44,558 nt of DNA, taken from a virus. Lineage: Duplodnaviria > Heunggongvirae > Uroviricota > Caudoviricetes. The position numbers were made by a program, and so were the translations under genes. A model generated the notes under the pieces. It did no database searches, was not told where the DNA came from, and saw only the letters and a program-made list of their open reading frames with translations. Location: the IMG/VR virus record IMGVR_UViG_2541047901_000009. One strand, 5' to 3'. This document shows, piece by piece, positions 1 to 40,238 of the stretch; the stretch's first letter is position 1, and each line of letters starts with the position of its first letter.

Positions 1-2109
1 TTACACCATACTGTTAACCTGGCCGGGTAATTCGCTAGCTGGAATACGAAAGGTATACCAGGCATAACGACAGCGTTTCCACAGGCTGGAGAAATGGAGA
101 TGATAAAGGCAATCTGCAATAATTTCGTTATCTGGATATAAAGACTCGGCAAAATGTGTCCAGCGCGCACTGAGTTTCATGTTAAACAGTTTTTCATCTT
201 CTTTGTTACCATACAGGCGCGACAAAGTAATCATTGCTTCGAGCGTACCTTTATTCGCTTCTTCTTGTACCTGTTGGAGGTGCAAATGAGCAAGTGAGAG
301 TTCTTTCACCTCAAAGATATTAAGTAAAAAAAGCCCCCATGCTTTTTCATGTCCAGCTTCATGAGCCAGAAATAAATTGTCAAGGAGATTTTTTTCATAA
401 ATAGCCCGTGTTTCTTTAGAAATTTCTTGTTTATTTAGTGCCTGGTAGCAGATAGCAATGCTAAAATAAATATTTTGTAGATCTTGTTGATGTTCGCTAT
501 AACCATAATTTTTTACCAGTGGATAAGATACCGAGCTATGGAAATTTAGGTCATCTTGAAGTATTTTAAGTGCCCGTCGAAAATACTCCAAAGCTGTAGA
601 TGGTTCATAAGGTAATTTTGTATTGTCTTCCTTATCCAAATATTCAAGAGCAACTAAATTTAATGCGGCAGGAATATTTCTTTGCTTACCAATTGTCGCA
701 AGCGGAATGAAATAATCAGAAAGGTCAAACCAACTCAAATCTTTTATTGCCGACCGCCAATTATGATTGTATTTAATGTCACTAGCTTTTTCCAGCCAAG
801 CATCGCCCTGCCCTTCATCTTTTTCAAAACCCAAAATACCCTCTCGCTGGAAAAACCCCCTATAAATAACAGGTGTAGCATAAGTTGTATTCTGTGAATT
901 TTGGCAGATAAAATTATATATCCAGAATGAATCTGGATAATAACTTAATGCAAATTTTATCGCGTACGCAGTGTAATAATTATTGAGCTTCATGTCTTCC
1001 ATCACCGCTCGCTGTATACAGCACCACAACTTATCGTGATCGTTCTGCTTGTTATAGCAGGCAAGTAACCACTCTAGGGCATTATGGCGACATTCCTGAA
1101 ATTGTGCGTACTGAGCAATATTCTCTGCTAAGTCGATTGCATATTGTTGCTCCTCGGGCGCAATGTCCTCAATGCTGACATCTCGGTAATCATCCCACCA
1201 AAGTAAGAGATCCATATAGTCATGTTCTTCGGTAGATAAGTGCTTACAGGTTACTGAATCCAGCAATTCGGAAATTTCTTTATGCGACCCTCCCCAGCGT
1301 GGCATTCGAAATGGTATATATTCAACAAAAGGATAAAAAGTGTGAGGAAAAATAGTCAGGCAAACAGAAAGCCAATATTTTTGCCCACCATCATCATCAT
1401 ACTCAGGAAGTATATTGGGGCGAGGCAAAACGGGGCATATTGCATGCTCAAACGAAAGTCCGGAATACGCCATCAACGCTTCCACTTCTTGCGGGGAGCG
1501 GCGGTGATAATTTTTCAGTGCGATCATTAATGGTATTCCTGCGACACTATCACCGTTAAGGTGTGCCGCCAGCCAGGCTGGCTGACCAAATACTTTTGAG
1601 TTGGTGCTGGTAAGTAATGCAGCCATCCATTGTCGTGGGTCACAATCAATTGCTTTAAGTGTAGCGATGACCATTTGTTCATTACATGCACCAGCACAAA
1701 GCCACATTGCATGTGTGGTATCATTTGCCCAGCCATAACTGCGATATAACCATGCACGGTGATTCCAGTATTGTGCTTCGGCAAGCCAGGCATGTGTAGA
1801 ATGAGGTCTTGCTTGCTGCCAGGTTTTAATGAGTCTTAAACCTTCTGTTCCGGCATCAACTAGCGTGTTCATATCATAAAAATAGTTGCACATTTGGGTC
1901 CAGGATAAAAAATAGCGCTTTTCAGCCTGACGAGAAGTGAAACTCTCCTGTAATACCTGGTTATAAATTTCATCTAGTTCCTGATAACGTTTTTCTTGTA
2001 ACATATAAGGAATATTTGCGATTTGCCATTTTCTCTCAAGAGTATTAAGTGGCATTTTTTGGTCACACATCTTTTGCATTGCACTGAGTAAACGAGCATC
2101 CTGTTCCAT
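1..2109 (-). CDS. Hypothetical protein, about 702 aa, Trp-rich, with an HEAGH (HExxH-like) motif near the C-terminus; last gene of a three-gene operon
   Basis: Long ORF 1..2148 on the minus strand. The likely true start is the ATG for MEQDARLL at about 2109, preceded by AAGGA and lying just after the stop of the upstream gene. No family recognised. Region is AT-rich by eye. Confidence 0.6.
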   Translation of the reverse strand: MEQDARLLSAMQKMCDQKMPLNTLERKWQIANIPYMLQEKRYQELDEIYNQVLQESFTSRQAEKRYFLSWTQMCNYFYDMNTLVDAGTEGLRLIKTWQQARPHSTHAWLAEAQYWNHRAWLYRSYGWANDTTHAMWLCAGACNEQMVIATLKAIDCDPRQWMAALLTSTNSKVFGQPAWLAAHLNGDSVAGIPLMIALKNYHRRSPQEVEALMAYSGLSFEHAICPVLPRPNILPEYDDDGGQKYWLSVCLTIFPHTFYPFVEYIPFRMPRWGGSHKEISELLDSVTCKHLSTEEHDYMDLLLWWDDYRDVSIEDIAPEEQQYAIDLAENIAQYAQFQECRHNALEWLLACYNKQNDHDKLWCCIQRAVMEDMKLNNYYTAYAIKFALSYYPDSFWIYNFICQNSQNTTYATPVIYRGFFQREGILGFEKDEGQGDAWLEKASDIKYNHNWRSAIKDLSWFDLSDYFIPLATIGKQRNIPAALNLVALEYLDKEDNTKLPYEPSTALEYFRRALKILQDDLNFHSSVSYPLVKNYGYSEHQQDLQNIYFSIAICYQALNKQEISKETRAIYEKNLLDNLFLAHEAGHEKAWGLFLLNIFEVKELSLAHLHLQQVQEEANKGTLEAMITLSRLYGNKEDEKLFNMKLSARWTHFAESLYPDNEIIADCLYHLHFSSLWKRCRYAWYTFRIPASELPGQVNSMV

Positions 2110-11583: not shown

Positions 11584-12774
11584 TTAATTGCTGTTAACCG
11601 AGGTGACCAGATTTGCCAGGTATTTATCGGTAATACGCTGGCGCAGGGTCAGGTTTTCAAGAGGAGGCACCGGTGTATAGTCGTAGTCGATATACAGTTT
11701 TCCGGCCTTGAGGGTTTCCGCATCGTTGGATTCTTCGCTGAACCAGCAGGTCGCATCCACGATATAGCCGTTTGTTTTCAGCTCACGGAATTTGGCATTG
11801 ATGCCGTCAACGATGTCGCGAATCAGCGTTGCGGTGATGGGCTTGTCCACCGCCCACATGTGCGCCTCAGCCATCGTGTCGGCCATCACCTGCGCGGTGC
11901 GGGTGTAGTTTTCAAAGAGGAACAGCGGGTCATCAGAGCAGGTACGGTTACCCCAGAATCGGAAACCGTCGCGGCGAATCAGCGTAGTGACGCCTGACTC
12001 GTTAAGCAGGTCAGCATCGGTGCCGGACTCCTGCAAATCCCAGAATACAGATGCGCTGATGCCGGTAACACCGTTTACCCCGACGTTGGACAGCGTTTTA
12101 TGCCAGCCCTGCTCCTGGTCGATTTTAGCGCGCAGACCCAGCGCACGGGCGGTGGCATACGCGGTGGCGGTGGTACTGGTGACCGTATCCCATGCGAGGA
12201 AATCCGGCCAGATGACCATCAGCTCACGCTGGCTGAAATTCTGGCGGTAGGCTTTCACCTCGGAAATGGTCTTACAGCCCCATGCGCTGATATATCCGAA
12301 AGCGCGCAGCTTCTGACAGACGGATGCCAGTGCAACAGCCACCTCTTTGGTATCCAGTCCCGGCACACCGAGAATACGCGGTTTAACACCGGTTACCGAC
12401 TCCGCCGCCAGCAGGGCTTTTAGTCCGGTGTACTGACCGTTTTCGTCGGTGGTGCCGATGATATTGGAAACGGTCTGCGCGAGTTTCGTTTCCTCGTCAT
12501 CACCGGTGCCGTCTTCCACGCGCACGACAACGGTGACCGGTTTTGACTGGTCAGCGATGGCCTGCAACGATGCCGCCAGCGTGCCTTTTTTACCGGCCTT
12601 TGCAATTGCGCTTTGCACATTGGTAATCAGCACCGGTTTATTGAGGGGGAAGGTTTCCGCATCCGCATCGCTGGCCGTGCAGACCATGCCGACAATGGCA
12701 GTGGATACGGTGGAAATGACGCGGGTGCCGTCGTTAATCTCCAGCACCTGCACGCCATGATGATAGTCACTCAT
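11584..12774 (-). CDS. FI: P2 gpFI contractile tail sheath protein
   Basis: 396 aa, in the P2 FI position. Confidence 0.9.
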   Translation of the reverse strand: MSDYHHGVQVLEINDGTRVISTVSTAIVGMVCTASDADAETFPLNKPVLITNVQSAIAKAGKKGTLAASLQAIADQSKPVTVVVRVEDGTGDDEETKLAQTVSNIIGTTDENGQYTGLKALLAAESVTGVKPRILGVPGLDTKEVAVALASVCQKLRAFGYISAWGCKTISEVKAYRQNFSQRELMVIWPDFLAWDTVTSTTATAYATARALGLRAKIDQEQGWHKTLSNVGVNGVTGISASVFWDLQESGTDADLLNESGVTTLIRRDGFRFWGNRTCSDDPLFLFENYTRTAQVMADTMAEAHMWAVDKPITATLIRDIVDGINAKFRELKTNGYIVDATCWFSEESNDAETLKAGKLYIDYDYTPVPPLENLTLRQRITDKYLANLVTSVNSN

Positions 12775-12870: not shown

Positions 12871-12897
12871 AAAGAAAAGGCGGGCAATTCGCCCGCC
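12871..12897 (-). terminator. Hairpin terminator upstream of FI
   Basis: Perfect stem GGCGGGC-aattc-GCCCGCC at 12879-12897, followed on the minus strand by a T-run (plus-strand AAAGAAAA). Confidence 0.5.
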
Positions 12898-12957
12898 TGT
12901 CCTGATTTGTACTCACTCATTTTCCGCCTGACAATTTACATAGCCCAAATGCTATCA

Positions 12958-12973
12958 AATCTGACAGTCTGCT
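12958..12973. repeat. 16-bp repeat AATCTGACAGTCTGCT, left copy, flanking the Z/fun-locus cargo
   Basis: Its exact reverse complement occurs at 15392-15407, and a 22/25 direct near-copy at 15264-15288. Confidence 0.8.
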
Positions 12974-13104
12974 TTGAGCGAAAAGTGGACATTAGAGTTA
13001 CAAAAGCAAGTTTAAATCATCCAAAATATTACAATGTCCTTATCTATCTGATATCGTTATGATAAAAAGCTCCTGAATATAATCGATAGTAGGTGGTTAT
13101 TTCC

Positions 13105-13482
13105 ATGAAATCAATTTTAGAGGTTTTTACTCAAGGAAATACTAAAGAAAAACTGGCTGTTATCGCCGATCTCACAACCATTGCGGGAATATCGATTGCA
13201 ACTATTATTGCTGGTTTGTTAACCCTAGTTGCAAAAACAGATAAACTAGATGTTGGAAATCTGTTTGGAGTTGTCATAATATCTCTGCTCGGATTGGCTG
13301 GTGTTTGCTGTTTTGTGGCCTTATTTATTTGGGTTATAACCCAAATGTCTAAACCATGGGGAACACCTCGGGGGGTTCAGCCCTTAGTTAAGTGTGCTAT
13401 TTCCCTTATCTTTATCTGTATGTTTTTGCTGGCTGTCTTTACATTTTATGAGTTTATTTCTTCGATGAGCATACGCTATTGA
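13105..13482 (+). CDS. Small hydrophobic membrane protein, about 125 aa, 3-4 predicted TM helices; function unknown
   Basis: ORF 13093..13482. Likely ATG at 13105 (MKSILEVF) with AGGTGG eight nt upstream and a TATAAT box at 13078-13083. Strongly hydrophobic and AT-rich. Confidence 0.6.
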   Translation: MKSILEVFTQGNTKEKLAVIADLTTIAGISIATIIAGLLTLVAKTDKLDVGNLFGVVIISLLGLAGVCCFVALFIWVITQMSKPWGTPRGVQPLVKCAISLIFICMFLLAVFTFYEFISSMSIRY

Positions 13483-13504
13483 ATATAAAATCAGCCCCCA
13501 TAAC

Positions 13505-14089
13505 TTAAAAGAGACCTTCTATATCGACTTCAATGCCCAAATAACGGACTGTGCTTTCCAGTTTCTTATGGCCCAACAGAAGTTGGATCCCCCGGAGACT
13601 CTTGGTTTTCTTGTAGATTAAGTAAGGTTTTGTTCTTCTCATGGAATGTGTGCTGTACAGCGAATCTTCGAGACCAAGCTTTTCTACCCACCCATGAAAA
13701 ATTCGGTTGTATTGCCGGGTTGATATATGGTGGTTAGTTCCGACCCGAGAGCGGAACAGGAAGCCTTTACTATGCCAGTTGCCGAGCTTTATCAATGCAG
13801 TAACCGCTTCCCTTGTCCCTTTGGTTATCTCAAATTGGACAGGGCTGCCGGTTTTCTGTTGCAACACCGTTGCTCTGCTTGAGACAGAACTGCCATATGC
13901 AGCATCTGATACTTTGAGTTTGACCAAATCACAGCCCCGTAGCTTAGTGTCCAAAGCCATGTTGAACAGAGCTAGATCGCGTGTTTTACCTTCCAACTCA
14001 AGTCTAATCCGGATCCCCCAGATATGAGATATCTGAAGTGGCCTTTTTTGACCGATGGTACGGTCTTTATTCCACGGTGACGTTTTCAT
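13505..14089 (-). CDS. Small tyrosine site-specific recombinase, about 194 aa, FimB/FimE-like size with catalytic domain only
   Basis: Catalytic signature in order: R (TKLRGCDLVKL), K, HSMRRT (H-x-x-R) and LLGHKKLESTVRY (H...Y). Start taken at the internal ATG (MKTSPWNK) preceded by AGGAG. Confidence 0.7.
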   Translation of the reverse strand: MKTSPWNKDRTIGQKRPLQISHIWGIRIRLELEGKTRDLALFNMALDTKLRGCDLVKLKVSDAAYGSSVSSRATVLQQKTGSPVQFEITKGTREAVTALIKLGNWHSKGFLFRSRVGTNHHISTRQYNRIFHGWVEKLGLEDSLYSTHSMRRTKPYLIYKKTKSLRGIQLLLGHKKLESTVRYLGIEVDIEGLF

Positions 14090-14195
14090 ATTCAAATCTC
14101 CTGCAATGTGGGAGATTTGAGTATGGTTGTCTCTCAAGAGCGAAAATAAGTCAACTATCACTAGTTGTTGCGCATGTACGTATTCTGTCAATTAA

Positions 14196-15038
14196 TTATT
14201 GACAATCATCAATTCTGGAATGATCAAAATCATCATATCGAATTATAGTCTGGTTGACTGTATCTATTGTTGGTGTCATTTCTGTTATAATATCCTGATA
14301 ACCTAAAGAGTTAAATACATTTACTAAGGCCTCACACCGAAGGGCCGTAGCAATTACAAAATTATAAATTGCCAGCCGTTTATTTTCTTGTTTAACTGCA
14401 AGAATGAATTCGATAGCAGTATTTTCATCACTTTGGATTGCATTATATAGAGATACTATATTTACCATATCATCAGAGAATGTATGTATTGAATCACAAA
14501 GAGGAACGTAATGGGCATGATAGTGTGTTTCCCAGCCAATTAATTCAAAAAGTTTTCTGGTTCCTGGATATTCAGGTGTATTTGGCCACAATCTATTAAA
14601 TAGATCAGTTAGTTCTTTTCCCATGCGAATCCTTTCATTTGCTGCTGGATTAGTCATTCCTTTGGATTTTAAACACTCCAGCCACCGTTTTCCATTACTA
14701 TGAACTAATTTCTTACTAGCCTTGAGTAATGCTTGTGCATTTTCGCCATCATCTATTGCTATATAAAATTGATTGGCAGCCTGTTCTATTATAACCCTAG
14801 CTAATACTTCCGATGCTGAAAAGGCTCCTATATTCAAAGAAGAGATAGCCTGATTACTAAGTTCATTCAGTACATTAAAGTACTGTAAGACCATCAATTT
14901 TTGTTCCACACCCTTTAGGTTGTCTATTTTATTTTTATGCTCCTCAAATTTTGCATGGATATATTTATTTATCGCGGCTATTTTTTTTACATCTTCGTCA
15001 AGATCAAACGGGCAACGTCCAAACAATTCTTTTTTCAT
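14196..15038 (-). CDS. Hypothetical protein, 280 aa, cargo gene directly upstream of the recombinase
   Basis: Clean ORF with AGGAGA five nt upstream of the ATG; its stop lies about 105 bp before the recombinase start codon. No recognisable family. AT-rich. Confidence 0.65.
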   Translation of the reverse strand: MKKELFGRCPFDLDEDVKKIAAINKYIHAKFEEHKNKIDNLKGVEQKLMVLQYFNVLNELSNQAISSLNIGAFSASEVLARVIIEQAANQFYIAIDDGENAQALLKASKKLVHSNGKRWLECLKSKGMTNPAANERIRMGKELTDLFNRLWPNTPEYPGTRKLFELIGWETHYHAHYVPLCDSIHTFSDDMVNIVSLYNAIQSDENTAIEFILAVKQENKRLAIYNFVIATALRCEALVNVFNSLGYQDIITEMTPTIDTVNQTIIRYDDFDHSRIDDCQ

Positions 15039-15263
15039 ATATTTCTCCTGTTGTACAAGCTTCCATAAGTTGGCAGATTATACACTGAAGATTACCTATA
15101 AATAGCTGTGCGGGATAGCAGATCAGTGCAAGAAGTACAACCAAGTGAACTGTGCGTATTCAGATACCTGGCCTAACGTTCGCGATAGCCGTCCCCTGCA
15201 CGAAGCCATATATTAGATGTATTAGCTCAGACCTTATCTGACAGGTTGAGTAGGTAGAATCTA

Positions 15264-15288
15264 ATCAAAGCTGACAGTCTGGTTTGGA
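15264..15288. repeat. Direct near-copy (22/25) of the flanking repeat, core CTGACAGTCTG at 15271-15281
   Basis: ATCAAAGCTGACAGTCTGGTTTGGA here against ATCAAATCTGACAGTCTGCTTTGAG at 12955-12979. Confidence 0.7.
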
Positions 15289-15391
15289 CTGTGAGTTCAA
15301 CCGATGGATGCAACACACAGCGATCTACGGACATTACTAGCATAGCTGTGTATTAATCATCGGGAAGCAGGTCAGTCCGCTCCTAGCACAG

Positions 15392-15407
15392 AGCAGACTG
15401 TCAGATT
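15392..15407. repeat. Inverted perfect copy of the 16-bp flanking repeat (AGCAGACTGTCAGATT)
   Basis: Exact reverse complement of 12958-12973. It lies in the loop of a 9-bp stem (AGCACAGAG...CTCTGTGCT, 15385-15424). Confidence 0.8.
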
Positions 15408-15459
15408 AGGCTTTACTCTGTGCTATAGATACGTTAGCTCACTCCAGAGATCATACAAC

Positions 15460-15987
15460 TTATTGCGGCATTTCCGGCCATTCAGGATTTGCAGGATCCA
15501 CACGGCTGACCAGAACACTGTAGCGTTCCCATGCTTCCAGTCGGCTACGCTCATCATCTGTTGCCATATTCAGTCTGACAGAGCGTTCCAGTGGCTGAAT
15601 GATAGTTTCAGCTTCGGAAAGCAAAGCTGACTTCTGTAATTCCGCCAGTTGCAGCTGTTCGTCTGCCGTATAAATCCGCTTAATCACGGCACCATCCTTA
15701 AACATCCATTTACCTGAGTCATCAGCACGTCGGTTGGCGGTAATATCAGGAACCTCGACAACGCTAAAACCTTCAGGGTTGAGCGTTGAAGCATCTCTGG
15801 TGATGCCGACAATTATATTATTCTCATCGTAAACAATCTTTATCGTGTCTTCCTGAAAATTACTTACTTCCTCATACCAGTTTTTTCCCTCTTCGGACCA
15901 TAACCAGATAACATCAAAATTTTTTGTCAGTTGATATTGGGCAACAGTTTTTGGATTACCCGCAGTAATATTTTTTAAATGCTGCAT
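15460..15987 (-). CDS. G: P2 gpG tail fibre assembly protein
   Basis: 175 aa, immediately downstream of H. Confidence 0.88.
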
Positions 15988-32046: not shown

Positions 32047-32135
32047 TGAGTGCGTATTACCGTGAAGGAGATCGGTGAGTAACATCGATGGAGATCGGTT
32101 CGTGTCACTTTCACAGAACCGTTTTTAAATTACCT

Positions 32136-32885
32136 TCACTGATCTCCTTCGGTCAACGGTGATTGTATTTTCCGCATTGATTCTCCTTTAAGTTCGATCT
32201 TGATACTGCCATGAACCAGTCGATCTAGGATGGCATCCGCATGTGTGGAGTCTCCGATCATTTTGTACCAGTTTTCCACCGGCAACTGGCTCACTACGAT
32301 GATTGAGCCTCGTTGGTACATCAGATCCACTATTTCCAGCAGGTCGCTACGCTGTTCTGATGAGAGAGGTTCCAGCCCCCAGTCATCCAGAAGCAGCAGA
32401 TCGCTATTATTCAGCCTGGTCAAAAGTTTGCTGTATCTTCCATCAGCATGCCCCTGATAGCACTGTTCCATCAGCGCTTTAAGGCGATAATAGTAGACCT
32501 TGTATCCCTGTCGGCAGGCATTATGACCAAGTGCACATGCCAGGAACGTTTTACCGCTGCCGGTGGCCCCGGTCAGTAAAATATTTTGTTTCAGGGTTAA
32601 CCAGTTTCCCTGACTGAGTGAACGGATGAGGGCCCTGTCCAGCCCTCTATTGTTACGATAATCCAGCTTTGATAACTCAGCATTAAGTCTGAACCGTGCA
32701 TGTTTGATCAGACGCTCTGCCTTCCTGTTTTCACGGCAGGTTAGTTCTTCTGCTGTCAGTAATGACAGGCGTTCTTCGAAGCCCAGCTCCTGGTATGTGC
32801 CCGGCTGAGCAAGTTGCTTTTTAAGCGCATCACGGAAGCCGGTGAGTTTAAGTGCGGTCAGTTGTTCGTAAAGATGATTCATCAT
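32136..32885 (-). CDS. istB: IS21-family helper ATPase IstB
   Basis: 249 aa with Walker A LLTGATGSGKTFLACALG and Walker B LLLLDDWG. Confidence 0.93.
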   Translation of the reverse strand: MMNHLYEQLTALKLTGFRDALKKQLAQPGTYQELGFEERLSLLTAEELTCRENRKAERLIKHARFRLNAELSKLDYRNNRGLDRALIRSLSQGNWLTLKQNILLTGATGSGKTFLACALGHNACRQGYKVYYYRLKALMEQCYQGHADGRYSKLLTRLNNSDLLLLDDWGLEPLSSEQRSDLLEIVDLMYQRGSIIVVSQLPVENWYKMIGDSTHADAILDRLVHGSIKIELKGESMRKIQSPLTEGDQ

Positions 32886-32896
32886 TGGATCCCGTA

Positions 32897-34438
32897 TCAG
32901 TGGTAATACTCACTGCCGCGTACGTTTTCGTGTTCCATCGTGGATAACAGATCTGGTTTTGGATCCTGAACAGGTTGTTTATCCAGACCTTTTTCCAGGA
33001 TCGATTTAATACCTGACAGACGCCATACCTTTGTTTTCAGAGCTCTTGCACATGCTGCATTAAGTCTGGCTTTACTGTATTTTTTATGAAGGTTCAGGAG
33101 TCCAAGGCAGAAGCGATAGCTTTGTTCCGGATGTGGACGAGAGTTCAGTATATGAAGCACATAACTATGAGTTTCACTGCCTATGTGCCCCGCCCATTCC
33201 AGAAGACGCTCTGGCGTCCAGGTGGCATGCTGTCGATGAGCTTCAGGCATGTGCTCGTTGCGGGTACTGTAGCCATAAGTACGCTTGCGCGGGTGCACAG
33301 CAACCTCCTGCCCCTGATTGAAGAGTCTTACCAGTTCTCCGGAGATCCATGCTTCCAGTTGCTGGCCTAACAGCGAACATGGAACCGAGTAGTAATGTTT
33401 GTCGATTTCCACGTGGTAATCGGCATGAACTCTGACTTTCTTCACCAGGGTGTAACTGTAACTGGCTTCAGGAAGAGGCTTCAGTGCGGGTTTATCAAGC
33501 TGGATGAAGAGTTCTGCACGTGAATAACCCAACTTCTGCATTATTTTGTTATTCAGTCTTTCCAGCAACTCCCGAATGCGCTGATTAAGCGATGCAAGGC
33601 TGTAGAAGATCTCATGCCTGATTCGGGCCATGATCCAGCGTTCAACAACCTGAACGCCAACTTCAGCTTTGGCTTTATCTTTCGGTTTACGTGGCCGCGC
33701 AGGCAAAACTGCGACATTATAATGCTCAAGCATCTGCTGGTAGGTAGGGTTAACGTCAGGATCATACTTACATGCCCTGGATGTGGCGCTTTTCAGATTG
33801 TCCGGAACAACAAGTTCAGGAACGCCACCCAACCACTGGAAGCAGCGAACATGACTCATCACCCAGTCTTCAAGCTGCTGAGACCAGGTGGCCTCTGCCC
33901 ATGTGTAACTTGATGCCCCGAGAACAGCTACGATGACCTGAGCAGTTCTTATTTCTCCGGTCTCAGGGTCGGTAACGCCAACGGTAGGTCCACAGTAATC
34001 AACGAAAAGTTTTTCGCCAGCTTTATGTACCTGACGCATTGATGGTGAAGTGGTTTTGAGCCATTCACGGTACATCCGGCAGTAATGGTTATAGCTGTAA
34101 AAACCGCCTGGATTACGCTCACAGTATTCTTCCCAGAGTAGCTGCAGCGTCACGCATTTATTACGCAGTTCCCGGTGTACTGTAGCCCAGTCAGGCAGAG
34201 AGTGCTTCTTCATCTTAACCTGGGTCTGAAGGAACGCATGTTTTAGTTTTGTATCATCCCATCCTGTAGGTAAGGGCCACTGCTTTATGCCAAGTTGAGC
34301 CGCCCGATTAGCATATCTGGATACAACGGAAGGGGAGATTGCAAGACTACGACCAATTTGTCGATGGCTGAGTCCAACACCGTATTTAAGCCTAAGAATT
34401 TCTTTAAGTTTTCTCATAGAAATTGGAACTGTTGGCAT
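32897..34438 (-). CDS. istA: IS21-family transposase IstA
   Basis: 513 aa with an N-terminal HTH and DDE integrase core, immediately upstream of istB. Confidence 0.92.
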   Translation of the reverse strand: MPTVPISMRKLKEILRLKYGVGLSHRQIGRSLAISPSVVSRYANRAAQLGIKQWPLPTGWDDTKLKHAFLQTQVKMKKHSLPDWATVHRELRNKCVTLQLLWEEYCERNPGGFYSYNHYCRMYREWLKTTSPSMRQVHKAGEKLFVDYCGPTVGVTDPETGEIRTAQVIVAVLGASSYTWAEATWSQQLEDWVMSHVRCFQWLGGVPELVVPDNLKSATSRACKYDPDVNPTYQQMLEHYNVAVLPARPRKPKDKAKAEVGVQVVERWIMARIRHEIFYSLASLNQRIRELLERLNNKIMQKLGYSRAELFIQLDKPALKPLPEASYSYTLVKKVRVHADYHVEIDKHYYSVPCSLLGQQLEAWISGELVRLFNQGQEVAVHPRKRTYGYSTRNEHMPEAHRQHATWTPERLLEWAGHIGSETHSYVLHILNSRPHPEQSYRFCLGLLNLHKKYSKARLNAACARALKTKVWRLSGIKSILEKGLDKQPVQDPKPDLLSTMEHENVRGSEYYH

Positions 34439-37955: not shown

Positions 37956-40238
37956 TTATTGCTCTGAATAACAATAAAACCAACTCCACTCATCAGCGAC
38001 CGGATACGTAAATTTTTTCCCGTTGTAATCTACGGTCGCACCACGCGCCAGCGCCTCAAGCTCCCATCGCTGCGGCCTGATACCGTTCTGAGCAAGGTCA
38101 ACGCGGATACGGGTAATTTGCATTCTTTCCGACCGGGTCAGTCTGGCCGATGGCGCTATTTCATGCGGTTTTAACGGGCTTCCGTTTCTTTGCTGACGGT
38201 TTGGTGTTATCAGGTCGTGTTTTAATGCGCCCCTGAGCGCCCTCACGACCTCCGGGTCATTCCATTCGATAACACCGTCATCAACCAGATTAAGCACTGC
38301 TGCGGCGTGTTCAGAAGGTGTGGGAGCCGGTAACGAAGTATCACCACTGGTGAGCTTTCCACAGTTATTGACAGGACTCCGAGGCGCGGCGATGCCGCTT
38401 TTTAAAGTCAAAGGCTCCACGACCGGAACTTTCGGAACAATGCGCCAGTCCGTCGTTCTGGTGATATGAATATGACGCGCGCCGAGATGCGGCGCGTAAA
38501 TGCCGACCACTCTCTCGACTTCTTCCTCGTACTCGTTAACTTCATCCGACGGGCTACGGGCGACTCTGACAGTCTGGCAATCGCGCGGAACATTTGCCCC
38601 ACCCTGCGCACTGATATACAACGCAAAATCGCCACTGTCTGCGGCAGCGCGTGCAGCCTCGACGCGTTCGTCAAACTCATCAGCAATGCTGACGCCGCGA
38701 GGCAATTTGCGTAGTTCACGGTAAGCCCCCATTGTCGGCAGACCAACCGTTTTAAATTGCGGGATGCGCCACGTTGACGCCCATGCAGTAACAGCCGCGG
38801 CAGTATCTTTCAGAGGTCTGCCGGTATCGTTATCGAGCTGACCATCCAGTGCATAGCCGTCGATATTTTTTGAAATGTATTTCGCGATATATCCCGCAGC
38901 ACCGCCCCGGTTAAGGTGCTTTGCCTGAAAACGGTTTCGCGCGGCTCCTCTTTCGTCACCATCCTCTTTGAGCGCATAGCGACGCATGATTTCGATAATC
39001 TGATTACGCTGGCGTGGATTACAAAAAAGCATCATATGCCAGTGCGGCGTTCCGTCGTGGTGTGGCTCGACGACACGCAAACCGTAGACCTGTAAATCAT
39101 TATCCTTGAATGCCGTGCGCATCAGGCTCCAGATGCGGCAGAGATAACGCTGCGCATCCTTTGGATTAAATGCCTCATCGTTCCAGCCGTGATTTAGCTG
39201 GACGGTTTTACTTTCGCCTTTTCCGACCTGACGTGTCGGGTGATACTTTGACGGCGCGGTCAGCGTGATAAACATCCCCACATCACCCTCTGCGGCGGCG
39301 TAACGCTCAATACCGGCAATGGTGTTCATCAGCTCCATCCGGCGAATTTCAGGATTAGAAATACTTCCCATCACCTTACTGATAAGGTCGATGCGCTCGC
39401 CGGTTTCCCTGTTTTCAAGGTCACACGATTTAAGAAATTCCAGATTTGCCTGGCGGCGCGCACGCACATCACGAATGGCATGTTTACTGGCATAAGGAGA
39501 ACGGTCTTTATTGACCTCCCCGACAGCAATCAGTAACGCTTCATGCCAGCGCATACGCTGACCTTTAAGCTGATGAGTCCACCACTCATCGTTAAACAGG
39601 CGGGCAATGGCAGAATATGCCTGCCTCGTGGTCATCTGTCCTTTACGGTATTTTTTCCAGTAAAGCGGGGAAATATTGAAAGCACGTGCAGCGCCAGCAA
39701 CATGACCATACAGGTGAGCCTGAGCCTCATCCGTAAACAGTGATTCTTTTTCGCCATGCGCATCCCCCCAGGCATCGCTGATTTCCTCATACATCATGAA
39801 AAGCTGCGATGAGATACGGGCGGCAAACTTTTTCAGCTCCTTATCATTCATCCCCGGCAGACGCGCATAATGGTCACGCTCTGCCAGAAACAGCAACGAC
39901 GCGTCGGTGTTCATTTCATGGCGCTGATTCACACGCTCAATGCGCGGCCATAAACGACGCTGAAAAGTGGATGTGAGGAAATAAAACCCGTGCACCGGGC
40001 TTTTATTGCGCCGGATGTAGTCATAGCGTGAAGTAAACAGCGAGCGCAAAAAGTAAGGCAGGCGATTAATCGTGGATAAAACACCTTGCACCTGACGCAT
40101 CTCGTCACGTGTAAGGGGTCTTTCGCGCCCGACGGCCTCGCGTGGCGCATTCCATGCATAAGCACCGGTAAACGTCTCACCGGTGCCTGCGGCAAATGCT
40201 GACGGAGGGACAAAACGCCCGGAGGCTTTAACGGCCAT
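37956..40238 (-). CDS. A: P2 gpA replication initiation protein (rolling-circle nicking endonuclease)
   Basis: About 760 aa from the ATG for MAVKASGRF, in the P2 A position. The ORF-track start at 40280 is a TTG. Confidence 0.9.
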   Translation of the reverse strand: MAVKASGRFVPPSAFAAGTGETFTGAYAWNAPREAVGRERPLTRDEMRQVQGVLSTINRLPYFLRSLFTSRYDYIRRNKSPVHGFYFLTSTFQRRLWPRIERVNQRHEMNTDASLLFLAERDHYARLPGMNDKELKKFAARISSQLFMMYEEISDAWGDAHGEKESLFTDEAQAHLYGHVAGAARAFNISPLYWKKYRKGQMTTRQAYSAIARLFNDEWWTHQLKGQRMRWHEALLIAVGEVNKDRSPYASKHAIRDVRARRQANLEFLKSCDLENRETGERIDLISKVMGSISNPEIRRMELMNTIAGIERYAAAEGDVGMFITLTAPSKYHPTRQVGKGESKTVQLNHGWNDEAFNPKDAQRYLCRIWSLMRTAFKDNDLQVYGLRVVEPHHDGTPHWHMMLFCNPRQRNQIIEIMRRYALKEDGDERGAARNRFQAKHLNRGGAAGYIAKYISKNIDGYALDGQLDNDTGRPLKDTAAAVTAWASTWRIPQFKTVGLPTMGAYRELRKLPRGVSIADEFDERVEAARAAADSGDFALYISAQGGANVPRDCQTVRVARSPSDEVNEYEEEVERVVGIYAPHLGARHIHITRTTDWRIVPKVPVVEPLTLKSGIAAPRSPVNNCGKLTSGDTSLPAPTPSEHAAAVLNLVDDGVIEWNDPEVVRALRGALKHDLITPNRQQRNGSPLKPHEIAPSARLTRSERMQITRIRVDLAQNGIRPQRWELEALARGATVDYNGKKFTYPVADEWSWFYCYSEQ

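Follow-up and report, generated by a model that had tools for sequence, protein, structure and literature searches.

Boundary repeats of the Z/fun slot in a P2-like prophage belong to two classes of sites that may bound exchangeable cassettes around a small tyrosine recombinase

What role could a long inverted repeat play when it frames the genes lying between two tail genes of a P2-like prophage, and when the framed segment itself encodes a tyrosine recombinase? We examined this question in a stretch of 44,558 nucleotides (nt) from a virus (IMG/VR record IMGVR_UViG_2541047901_000009), referred to here as the window, which is a P2-like prophage with a cargo region 100% identical to that of E. 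coli S88 and MS7163 (Table 1). A first-pass annotation of this DNA had described a 16/16 inverted match around the cargo, considered unlikely to be due to chance, together with a direct near-copy, and had proposed that they could be recombination sites or parts of an invertible switch. We confirmed the match, since AATCTGACAGTCTGCT at 12958-12973 returns as an exact reverse complement at 15392-15407, and found that the arms of the inverted pair reach 33 nt with 82% complementarity (12958-12990 and 15375-15407). Chance was also a poor explanation: the 11-mer CTGACAGTCTG has 4 copies in the window at 1 mismatch or less compared to 0.59 expected, a number reached in 0 of 100 shuffles. The fourth copy of this 11-mer, an exact one at 38566-38576 on the plus strand, in a GC-rich stretch where the site models described below have no match, may be due to chance. 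The reading that we develop here, to which we assign a probability of roughly 70%, is that the outer pair marks the boundary of a variable slot, and that sites of the same family, in two classes that we call L and R, bound cassettes in arrays organised around a recombinase of ~200 amino acids (aa) and would serve in the exchange of these cassettes.

Because the tail sheath gene FI and the tail-fibre assembly gene G flank the cargo, the latter corresponds to the Z/fun variable region of P2-like phages, and the repeats of the window lie between these two genes. In DNA searches, other P2-like phages matched the flanks of the query only. Alignments revealed that both arms of the window are conserved in P2-EC30, P2-EC31, P2-EC58 and P2-EC67, where the cargo is unrelated and without a recombinase, and the same sites surround the own cassette of P2. 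Four database entries labelled 'proviral Z-region' (AJ512676, AJ512677, AJ512683 and AJ512685; Nilsson et al. 2004) carry a 'left inverted repeat' and a 'right inverted repeat' at matching positions. When these entries and P2 were aligned, the repeats of the window were identified with the annotated ones and homology broke at their inner ends; the homology of the window to other P2-like phages ends at the inner ends of the 33-nt arms, such that the repeats frame the whole cargo exactly, in agreement with the first-pass annotation. In position, sequence and annotation, the outer pair equals the Z/fun inverted repeats of Nilsson, Karlsson and Haggard-Ljungquist (Mol Biol Evol 2004; AJ512676-AJ512685), and it differs from their occurrences elsewhere in that the slot of the window holds a tyrosine recombinase and extra, decayed sites. 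Judged by these sequence comparisons, the outer pair is conserved phage backbone and represents the already known Z/fun boundary repeats.

Finding the same repeats at the FI-G junction of P2-like phages that lack the recombinase had been named beforehand as an argument against recombination sites, and this is what we observed for the outer pair in P2 and P2-EC30/31/58/67. A role in recombination is left standing because the recombinase could act in trans from elsewhere: homologues with ~88-90% DNA identity were found in 801 of 5426 complete E. coli genomes, where they reside in genomic islands, a lambdoid prophage and plasmids. The left boundary was present in 1005 of the same 5426 genomes. 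According to the summary of Nilsson et al. 2004 given in a review (PMC8987985), the inverted repeats enable site-specific recombination.

The relationship of the window arms to a broader family of sites became apparent around the recombinase homologues. Repeats of 24 nt with the form GTCCGCTC-N8-GAGCGGAC were found there, and one element of E. coli Nissle 1917 was almost identical to the right arm of the window, including TGTCAGATTAG, a flank likewise located after the terminal R sites of the arrays in E. coli islands. Sites were surveyed in 80 loci from GTDB genomes (1.24 Mb), all oriented with the recombinase gene on the minus strand. In these loci, the arm pattern matched 55 times, compared to 4 in a shuffle; all matches were in loci with a recombinase at least 84% identical to that of the window, and the centre was one of just two sequences in nearly all of them. 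The core thus defined is 24 base pairs (bp) long and comprises an 8-bp arm, an 8-bp centre and an 8-bp arm. A search with nhmmer recovered 96 L-type sites (centre GAGCGA) and 83 R-type sites (centre TGGCAC), whose polarity relative to the recombinase gene was uniform, with 179 sites on the plus strand and 0 on the minus strand. The left arm of the window is an L site (12967-12990) and the right arm is an R site (15375-15398). L resembles an inverted R with two fixed differences at invariant positions of the centre, and for this reason the boundaries of the phage slot appear as an inverted repeat. The suggestion that the repeats are recombination sites is thereby strongly supported on comparative grounds, as their arms belong to a family that bounds mobile cassettes next to recombinase homologues.

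Conservation within the sites is highest at the central 6 nt (0.96-1.00), and covariation between the arms is absent (paired fraction 0.780 compared to 0.783 in shuffles; compensatory cells 23 compared to 29 ± 7). A conserved centre combined with arms that do not covary favours protein-bound, double-stranded half-sites with a homology-dependent centre over folded hairpins. In Colwellia and Pseudoalteromonas (L037 and L038), with recombinase homologues 71-73% identical to that of the window, GAGCGA-type and TGGCAC-type sites still lie beside the gene. In Marinobacter (L073-L087), at ~55% recombinase identity, the upstream site is longer and different, still ending in AAGCGRAC-ATTC. The exact R-type pattern was also present in at least 120 IMG/VR viral contigs. 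We examined 80 of them (L089-L168), and 32 had P2-type FI, G or H nearby, 7 had the recombinase and 41 had neither; all sites were on one strand in 57 of the 59 contigs holding 2 or more. Given the 41 contigs with neither P2 genes nor recombinase, cassette slots seem to be present in other prophage types as well.

Arrays of these sites occur on chromosomes, plasmids and prophages of Enterobacterales, usually in the order ...L-genes-R-18nt-L-genes-R-recombinase-L-genes-R..., with the recombinase gene taking the place of the 18-nt linker at one junction. In the 21 loci with full flanks, an R site was found ~45 nt past the recombinase stop codon in 16 and an L site ~40 nt before the start codon in 13. 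Successive sites were L then R in 59 cases and R then L in 46, and the latter included 27 composite junctions at 36-48 nt and 11 pairs at 683-688 nt with the recombinase gene in between. The 56 clean L..R cassettes had a median length of 1.7 kb and contained 1-5 open reading frames (ORFs) in either orientation, and their 96 ORFs fell into 86 protein clusters. Reading these ORFs by eye, we take them to encode ATPase-plus-HNH and nucleotidyltransferase proteins, transporters, regulators and enzymes. Annotated contents of the E. coli island arrays comprise an abortive-infection (Abi) protein, SIR2, a restriction endonuclease and a reverse transcriptase. A subset of cassettes, including that of P2 itself, carries a conserved ~45-nt box just inside L, mirrored just inside R, forming terminal inverted repeats of ~70 nt; the position of the box relative to the sites was judged by direct inspection, and many of the adjacent sites are degenerate.

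Three of the arrays (L213, L215 and L216) are E. coli islands located beside a yeeP-like GTPase gene and Ag43 genes, and the cassettes next to their recombinase differ by strain. Annotated there are the Abi protein; SIR2 with an NTP pyrophosphatase and an amidohydrolase; the restriction endonuclease; and a reverse transcriptase of 1229 aa. The recombinase gene of L216 has an internal stop codon.

Evidence that cassettes move as units with ends at the sites came from several comparisons. In the P2 slot of E. coli NQ3 (L088), the second position is taken by the 129-aa cassette of the window, with 96% DNA identity; it is bounded there by a composite R-18nt-L junction, and the homology begins at the L core (window 12967, L088 4090). 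Whole cassettes with 90-98% identity and ends on L/R cores are common to arrays of different species, and shared cassettes ending at sites were observed for the pairs L006/L085, L007/L085, L023/L026, L028/L044 and L088/window. About half of the alignment ends were no more than 20 nt from a site centre compared to 1% for random positions. E. coli Nissle 1917 and H8 have flanks that are 99.6% identical, and H8 has an additional 4.8 kb consisting of a linker, L, a reverse-transcriptase cassette and R, with an identical 24-bp R core at both ends of the insertion. In three E. coli strains, the island, the recombinase module and the right flank are the same but the cassettes are not, and the breakpoints fall within the recombinase-proximal L and the terminal R.

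One cassette appeared to be inverted in L012 and L031 compared to L036 of Yersinia. It was first taken as an inversion between L and R and then rejected, as it is an element of its own that splits a site. This element (L012 3186-4698, L031 1734-3256 and L036 8628-9942) encodes a 425-aa protein, which we take to be an IS110/IS1111-family-like transposase of the insertion sequence (IS) type. In L012 and L031 it splits an L site between the centre and the inner arm, and in Yersinia it lies in the opposite orientation in an R site. IS1111-attC elements target the attC sites of integrons, and by analogy the IS110-family-like element appears to target L/R sites.

The recombinase of the window matches PF00589 (6e-17; 62.3 bits compared to a cut-off of 27.1), and R51, K79, H148, R151, H174 and Y183 are invariant in the alignment of its homologues. 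We take these residues to be the catalytic set of the tyrosine recombinase fold; with this catalytic domain and the R-K-H-R-H-Y motif residues, the protein falls within the tyrosine recombinase superfamily. It is 90-96% identical to the ~200-aa enterobacterial homologues sampled and 54-73% identical to those of marine and other taxa. Scores against models of known subfamilies were far under the cut-offs, as seen for FimB/FimE invertases (NF007371, 20.6 compared to 222), IntI (TIGR02249, 17.9 compared to 265; NF011946, 17.8 compared to 435), XerC (42.5 compared to 335) and XerD (22.9 compared to 330). No close homologue was found in deposited phage genomes. The leader of the recombinase gene can form a hairpin in which the Shine-Dalgarno sequence and the AUG are paired to a complement lying upstream. 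Its stem has 15 perfectly paired nt (folding energy dG -17 to -22, z -5 to -8), and its arms are identical in L005-L007 (6565-6603). Distant recombinase homologues have equivalent leader hairpins formed from different sequence in single-sequence folds, and RNAalifold gave no consensus fold on a leader alignment of poor quality. The hairpin resembles the fold-back inhibition that keeps read-through transcripts from expressing IS transposases.

Within the window, the slot contains two cassettes and a recombinase module whose internal sites are degraded. Neither the 129-aa protein nor the DUF5677 protein had a match in PADLOC or NCBIfam. At the 3' end, the usual C-terminal 11 aa of the recombinase, DALEISESIEV, are replaced by IEGLF (13505-13523), and the gene is fused to the bidirectional terminator hairpin of the 129-aa cassette; the R sites expected 3' of the recombinase are therefore gone. 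On the opposite side, homology of the segment 14090-14195 with ~40 other arrays ends at ~14143-14146, within the centre of the degenerate recombinase-proximal L-type site. From the recombinase leader through the DUF5677 gene to R, the window is 94-97% identical to a chromosomal array of Buttiauxella.

The direct near-copy placed by the first-pass annotation around 15264-15288 is real, with 71% identity between 15238-15286 and 12928-12976 over 49 nt and a tight core at 15263-15288. We considered a chance origin for this third copy and rejected it, as by our own calculation an exact 11-mer is expected ~0.001 times per 2.4 kb. The copy recurs in Buttiauxella (L008), where the DUF5677 cassette holds it as part of 336 nt with 97% identity to the window, and because it is present in that cassette, it is an internal relic of the DUF5677 cassette and not a P2 junction. 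Closer to the right boundary, a degenerate L-type site followed by the ~45-nt box that abuts the R core looks like an empty or collapsed cassette end, and a collapsed cassette would explain why 15262-15410 forms a long imperfect palindrome (dG -29.4, z -4.96, 0 of 200 shuffles). The 9-bp stem reported at 15385-15424 is present, but it is unexceptional as a fold (dG -8.8, z -1.4, equalled by 20 of 200 shuffles).

The cargo of the window was found in 36 of the 5426 complete E. coli genomes, and a recombinase resides in the slot in 36-37. Outside the slot, positions 32051-34123 are 100% identical over 2073 nt to a stretch annotated as ISEc12 istA/istB (IS21-like) near the P2 slot of E. coli NQ3 (L088 5575-7647), and by this match a copy of ISEc12 appears to be present in the window.

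Table 1. Features of the Z/fun slot and its surroundings, in window coordinates unless a locus is named
Feature	Position	Strand	Basis or remark
FI, tail sheath gene	11584-12774	-	Pfam match
Intrinsic terminator adjoining the left site on its outer side, upstream of the FI operon	12878-12898	-	9-bp stem with 7 GC pairs, then T tract
Left slot boundary: outer flank AATCTGACA and L-type core GTCTGCTT-TGAGCGAA-AAGTGGAC (12967-12990)	12958-12990	+	conserved in P2-like phages
Gene for 129-aa predicted membrane protein, first cassette	13093-13482	+	family searches without match
Tyrosine recombinase gene, 194 aa, catalytic domain only	13505-14089	-	PF00589
Recombinase 5' leader hairpin, pairing Shine-Dalgarno and AUG with upstream complement	14087-14125	-	dG -17.4, z -5.2
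Degenerate recombinase-proximal L-type site GTCTCTCA-AGAGCGAA-AATAAGTC	14130-14153	+	inner arm decayed
DUF5677 protein gene, 280 aa, second cassette, fused to recombinase module	14196-15038	-	PF18928 5e-10
Third copy: relic of L-type site, outer flank and outer arm only, AATCAAAGCTGACA-GTCTGGTT...	15263-15288	+	alignment
Degenerate L-type site (15309-15332), then ~45-nt box (15333-15374) abutting R core	15309-15374	+	site comparison
Conserved ~45-nt box ATTACTAACAGCATTCTGTGTGAATCACCAGGGAGCAGGTCA	15333-15374; P2 locus L211 ~517-560	+	many loci
Right slot boundary: R-type core GTCCGCTC-CTAGCACA-GAGCAGAC (15375-15398) and outer flank TGTCAGATT	15375-15407	+	conserved in P2-like phages
G, tail-fibre assembly gene	15460-15987	-	Pfam match

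On the observed anatomy, conservation and polarity of the sites, their association with the recombinase and the breakpoints located at them, we base the following model. We infer that this recombinase would be the enzyme, that sites would combine like with like and that a circular intermediate would be formed. The recombinase would pair L with L and R with R, as strand exchange needs matching centres, and an exchange between two L sites, or between two R sites, in direct orientation would release a cassette as a circle with an R-linker-L junction. Any L or R site could then take up the circle, among them the one slot of a P2-like prophage, and a second like-with-like event would remove the old cassette, resulting in net exchange without inversion. 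Phages with a single slot would be refilled in trans from arrays in the same cell. The slot of the window may have captured a recombinase module and two cassettes, after which the internal sites would have decayed and the C-terminus of the recombinase would have been lost, such that the 2.4-kb cargo would now act as one cassette between one good L and one good R.

Several points weigh against this model. Neighbouring sites of the same class occurred (L-L in 20 cases and R-R in 12), and missed or decayed sites must be assumed to account for them. The recombinase is absent in cis from 97% of P2 slots, which makes it necessary to assume action in trans, and with its altered C-terminus the recombinase of the window may be impaired or inactive. 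An AlphaFold2 model built from 25 close homologues was too poor for use (predicted local distance difference test score 52.7). The binding or cutting of L/R sites by the recombinase is a step that we infer from the sequence pattern, and deletion or insertion between repeats of 24-66 bp could in principle be due to homologous recombination.

Homologous recombination at short repeats is indeed the main rival to recombinase-driven exchange. In its broadest version, the repeats would serve the phage as housekeeping signals, for example as hairpins that act as terminators or insulators between the G and FI operons, homologous recombination in the conserved tail genes on either side or within the repeats would swap the cargo, and the recombinase would be a passenger. 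The strict conservation of the repeats as phage backbone, the genuine terminator just outside the left repeat and the possibility of homologous exchange on short repeats all fit this proposal. However, both site classes are found in chromosomal and plasmid arrays that are not phages, with fixed polarity around the recombinase and close linkage to its gene; the arms lack the covariation of a selected hairpin; and breakpoints fall inside the 24-bp cores and not in long flanking homology. The stem on the R side, moreover, is an insignificant fold with no T tract. We therefore regard this proposal as unlikely.

Still less probable in our view is that the repeats are true recombination sites served by another enzyme, either the host XerC/XerD or a different protein, with the 200-aa recombinase having a different job. 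Modules bounded by inverted Xer sites exist on Acinetobacter plasmids, and most P2 slots have no recombinase in cis. Such an arrangement is difficult to reconcile with the regular spacing of R and L around the recombinase gene in 16 and 13 of the 21 loci with full flanks, with a site polarity tied to this gene, and with L/R centres that persist alongside recombinase homologues down to ~71% identity in Colwellia and Pseudoalteromonas. By our own reading, the 8-8-8 cores are also unlike the 11-6-11 dif consensus.

Finally, the fimS-like switch of the first-pass annotation, in which a FimB/FimE-sized recombinase flips either the whole cargo or a ~110-bp promoter segment (15282-15394), is very improbable: inverted copies do bracket both segments, the recombinase is FimB/FimE-like in size and the segment between the third copy and the right arm is a strong imperfect palindrome, but the recombinase scores far under the invertase cut-off, of the inner copy only an outer half-site is left, a consensus scan found no promoter-like site in 15282-15394, the outer pair is present in ~1000 prophages without the recombinase, L and R differ in their centres, the sole apparent inverted cassette was a site-targeting IS element, and at the assembly level all 36 E. 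coli copies and the Buttiauxella copy are in one orientation, with the 36 assemblies aligning in one piece at 99.7% identity or more, save for one IS insertion.

The preferred reading, cassettes bounded by L and R sites around a small recombinase, has counterparts among known systems. In integrons, too, a tyrosine recombinase gene lies beside arrayed accessory and defence cassettes of diverse kinds, with a site at each junction, fixed polarity and cassettes common to different replicons, and we found the cassettes, the junction sites and the adjacent recombinase gene in L/R arrays. In contrast to integrons, the ~200-aa recombinase fails the models of IntI, which are ~320-aa proteins with an IntI-specific extra domain. 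The sites differ from attC hairpins in being 24-bp palindromes of a double-stranded type, with arms that do not covary and a consensus unrelated to attC. There are also two site classes, and cassettes lie on both sides of the recombinase with 1-5 genes in either orientation, often with their own regulators. The pdif modules of Acinetobacter plasmids, which depend on XerC/XerD, are similar in being discrete modules between short, mutually inverted sites and common to replicons. They use host Xer and 11-6-11 dif-like sites, whereas L/R arrays have a dedicated small recombinase and 8-8-8 cores of unrelated sequence, and adjacent pdif modules share one site where adjacent L/R cassettes are separated by a composite R-18nt-L junction. 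With fimS and FimB/FimE the arrays share a small tyrosine recombinase beside short inverted repeats, but the repeats of the window bound exchangeable cassettes, and neither an invertible promoter segment nor orientation variants were found in the comparisons described above. The closest parallel in logic is engineered cassette exchange with heterospecific lox or FRT sites, where shared arms, incompatible centres and inverted flanking favour exchange over inversion or loss. That is a laboratory design, whereas the L/R arrangement is natural and its like-with-like rule would follow from the invariant centres.

The classic occupant of the Z/fun slot is fun, which excludes phage T5, and the variable slots of P2-like prophages carry anti-phage genes. 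At somewhat less than even odds, we tentatively propose that the boundary repeats are the tip of an unnamed cassette-exchange platform, integron-like but distinct, with a ~200-aa recombinase consisting of the catalytic domain only and mutually incompatible 24-bp L and R sites, which would shuttle defence and accessory cassettes among islands, plasmids and prophages, whether P2-like or not, in Enterobacterales and in some of the marine Gammaproteobacteria. Literature searched by sequence and keywords, a coverage that lay outside the text of Nilsson et al. 2004, gave no description of the array system or the site sequences; the platform appears to be undescribed so far, and its novelty is uncertain. 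A 2026 preprint on P2 and P4 hotspots describes the mechanism by which such slots are refilled as unknown, refers to integration 'through a presumably different mechanism' and to related islands 'of unknown mobility', and mentions neither the recombinase nor the L/R sites, and the hotspot study of Rousset 2022 concerns a P2 locus other than Z/fun. P2-like prophages are present in roughly a fifth of complete E. coli genomes. If true, the proposed platform would explain a rapid swapping of defence genes among phages, plasmids and chromosomes, and would provide hotspot turnover and 'cryptic islands of unknown mobility' with the mechanism that they have lacked. It would also provide a sequence rule by which cassettes and new defence genes could be located, and genome engineering would gain a compact natural recombinase that has two orthogonal sites.

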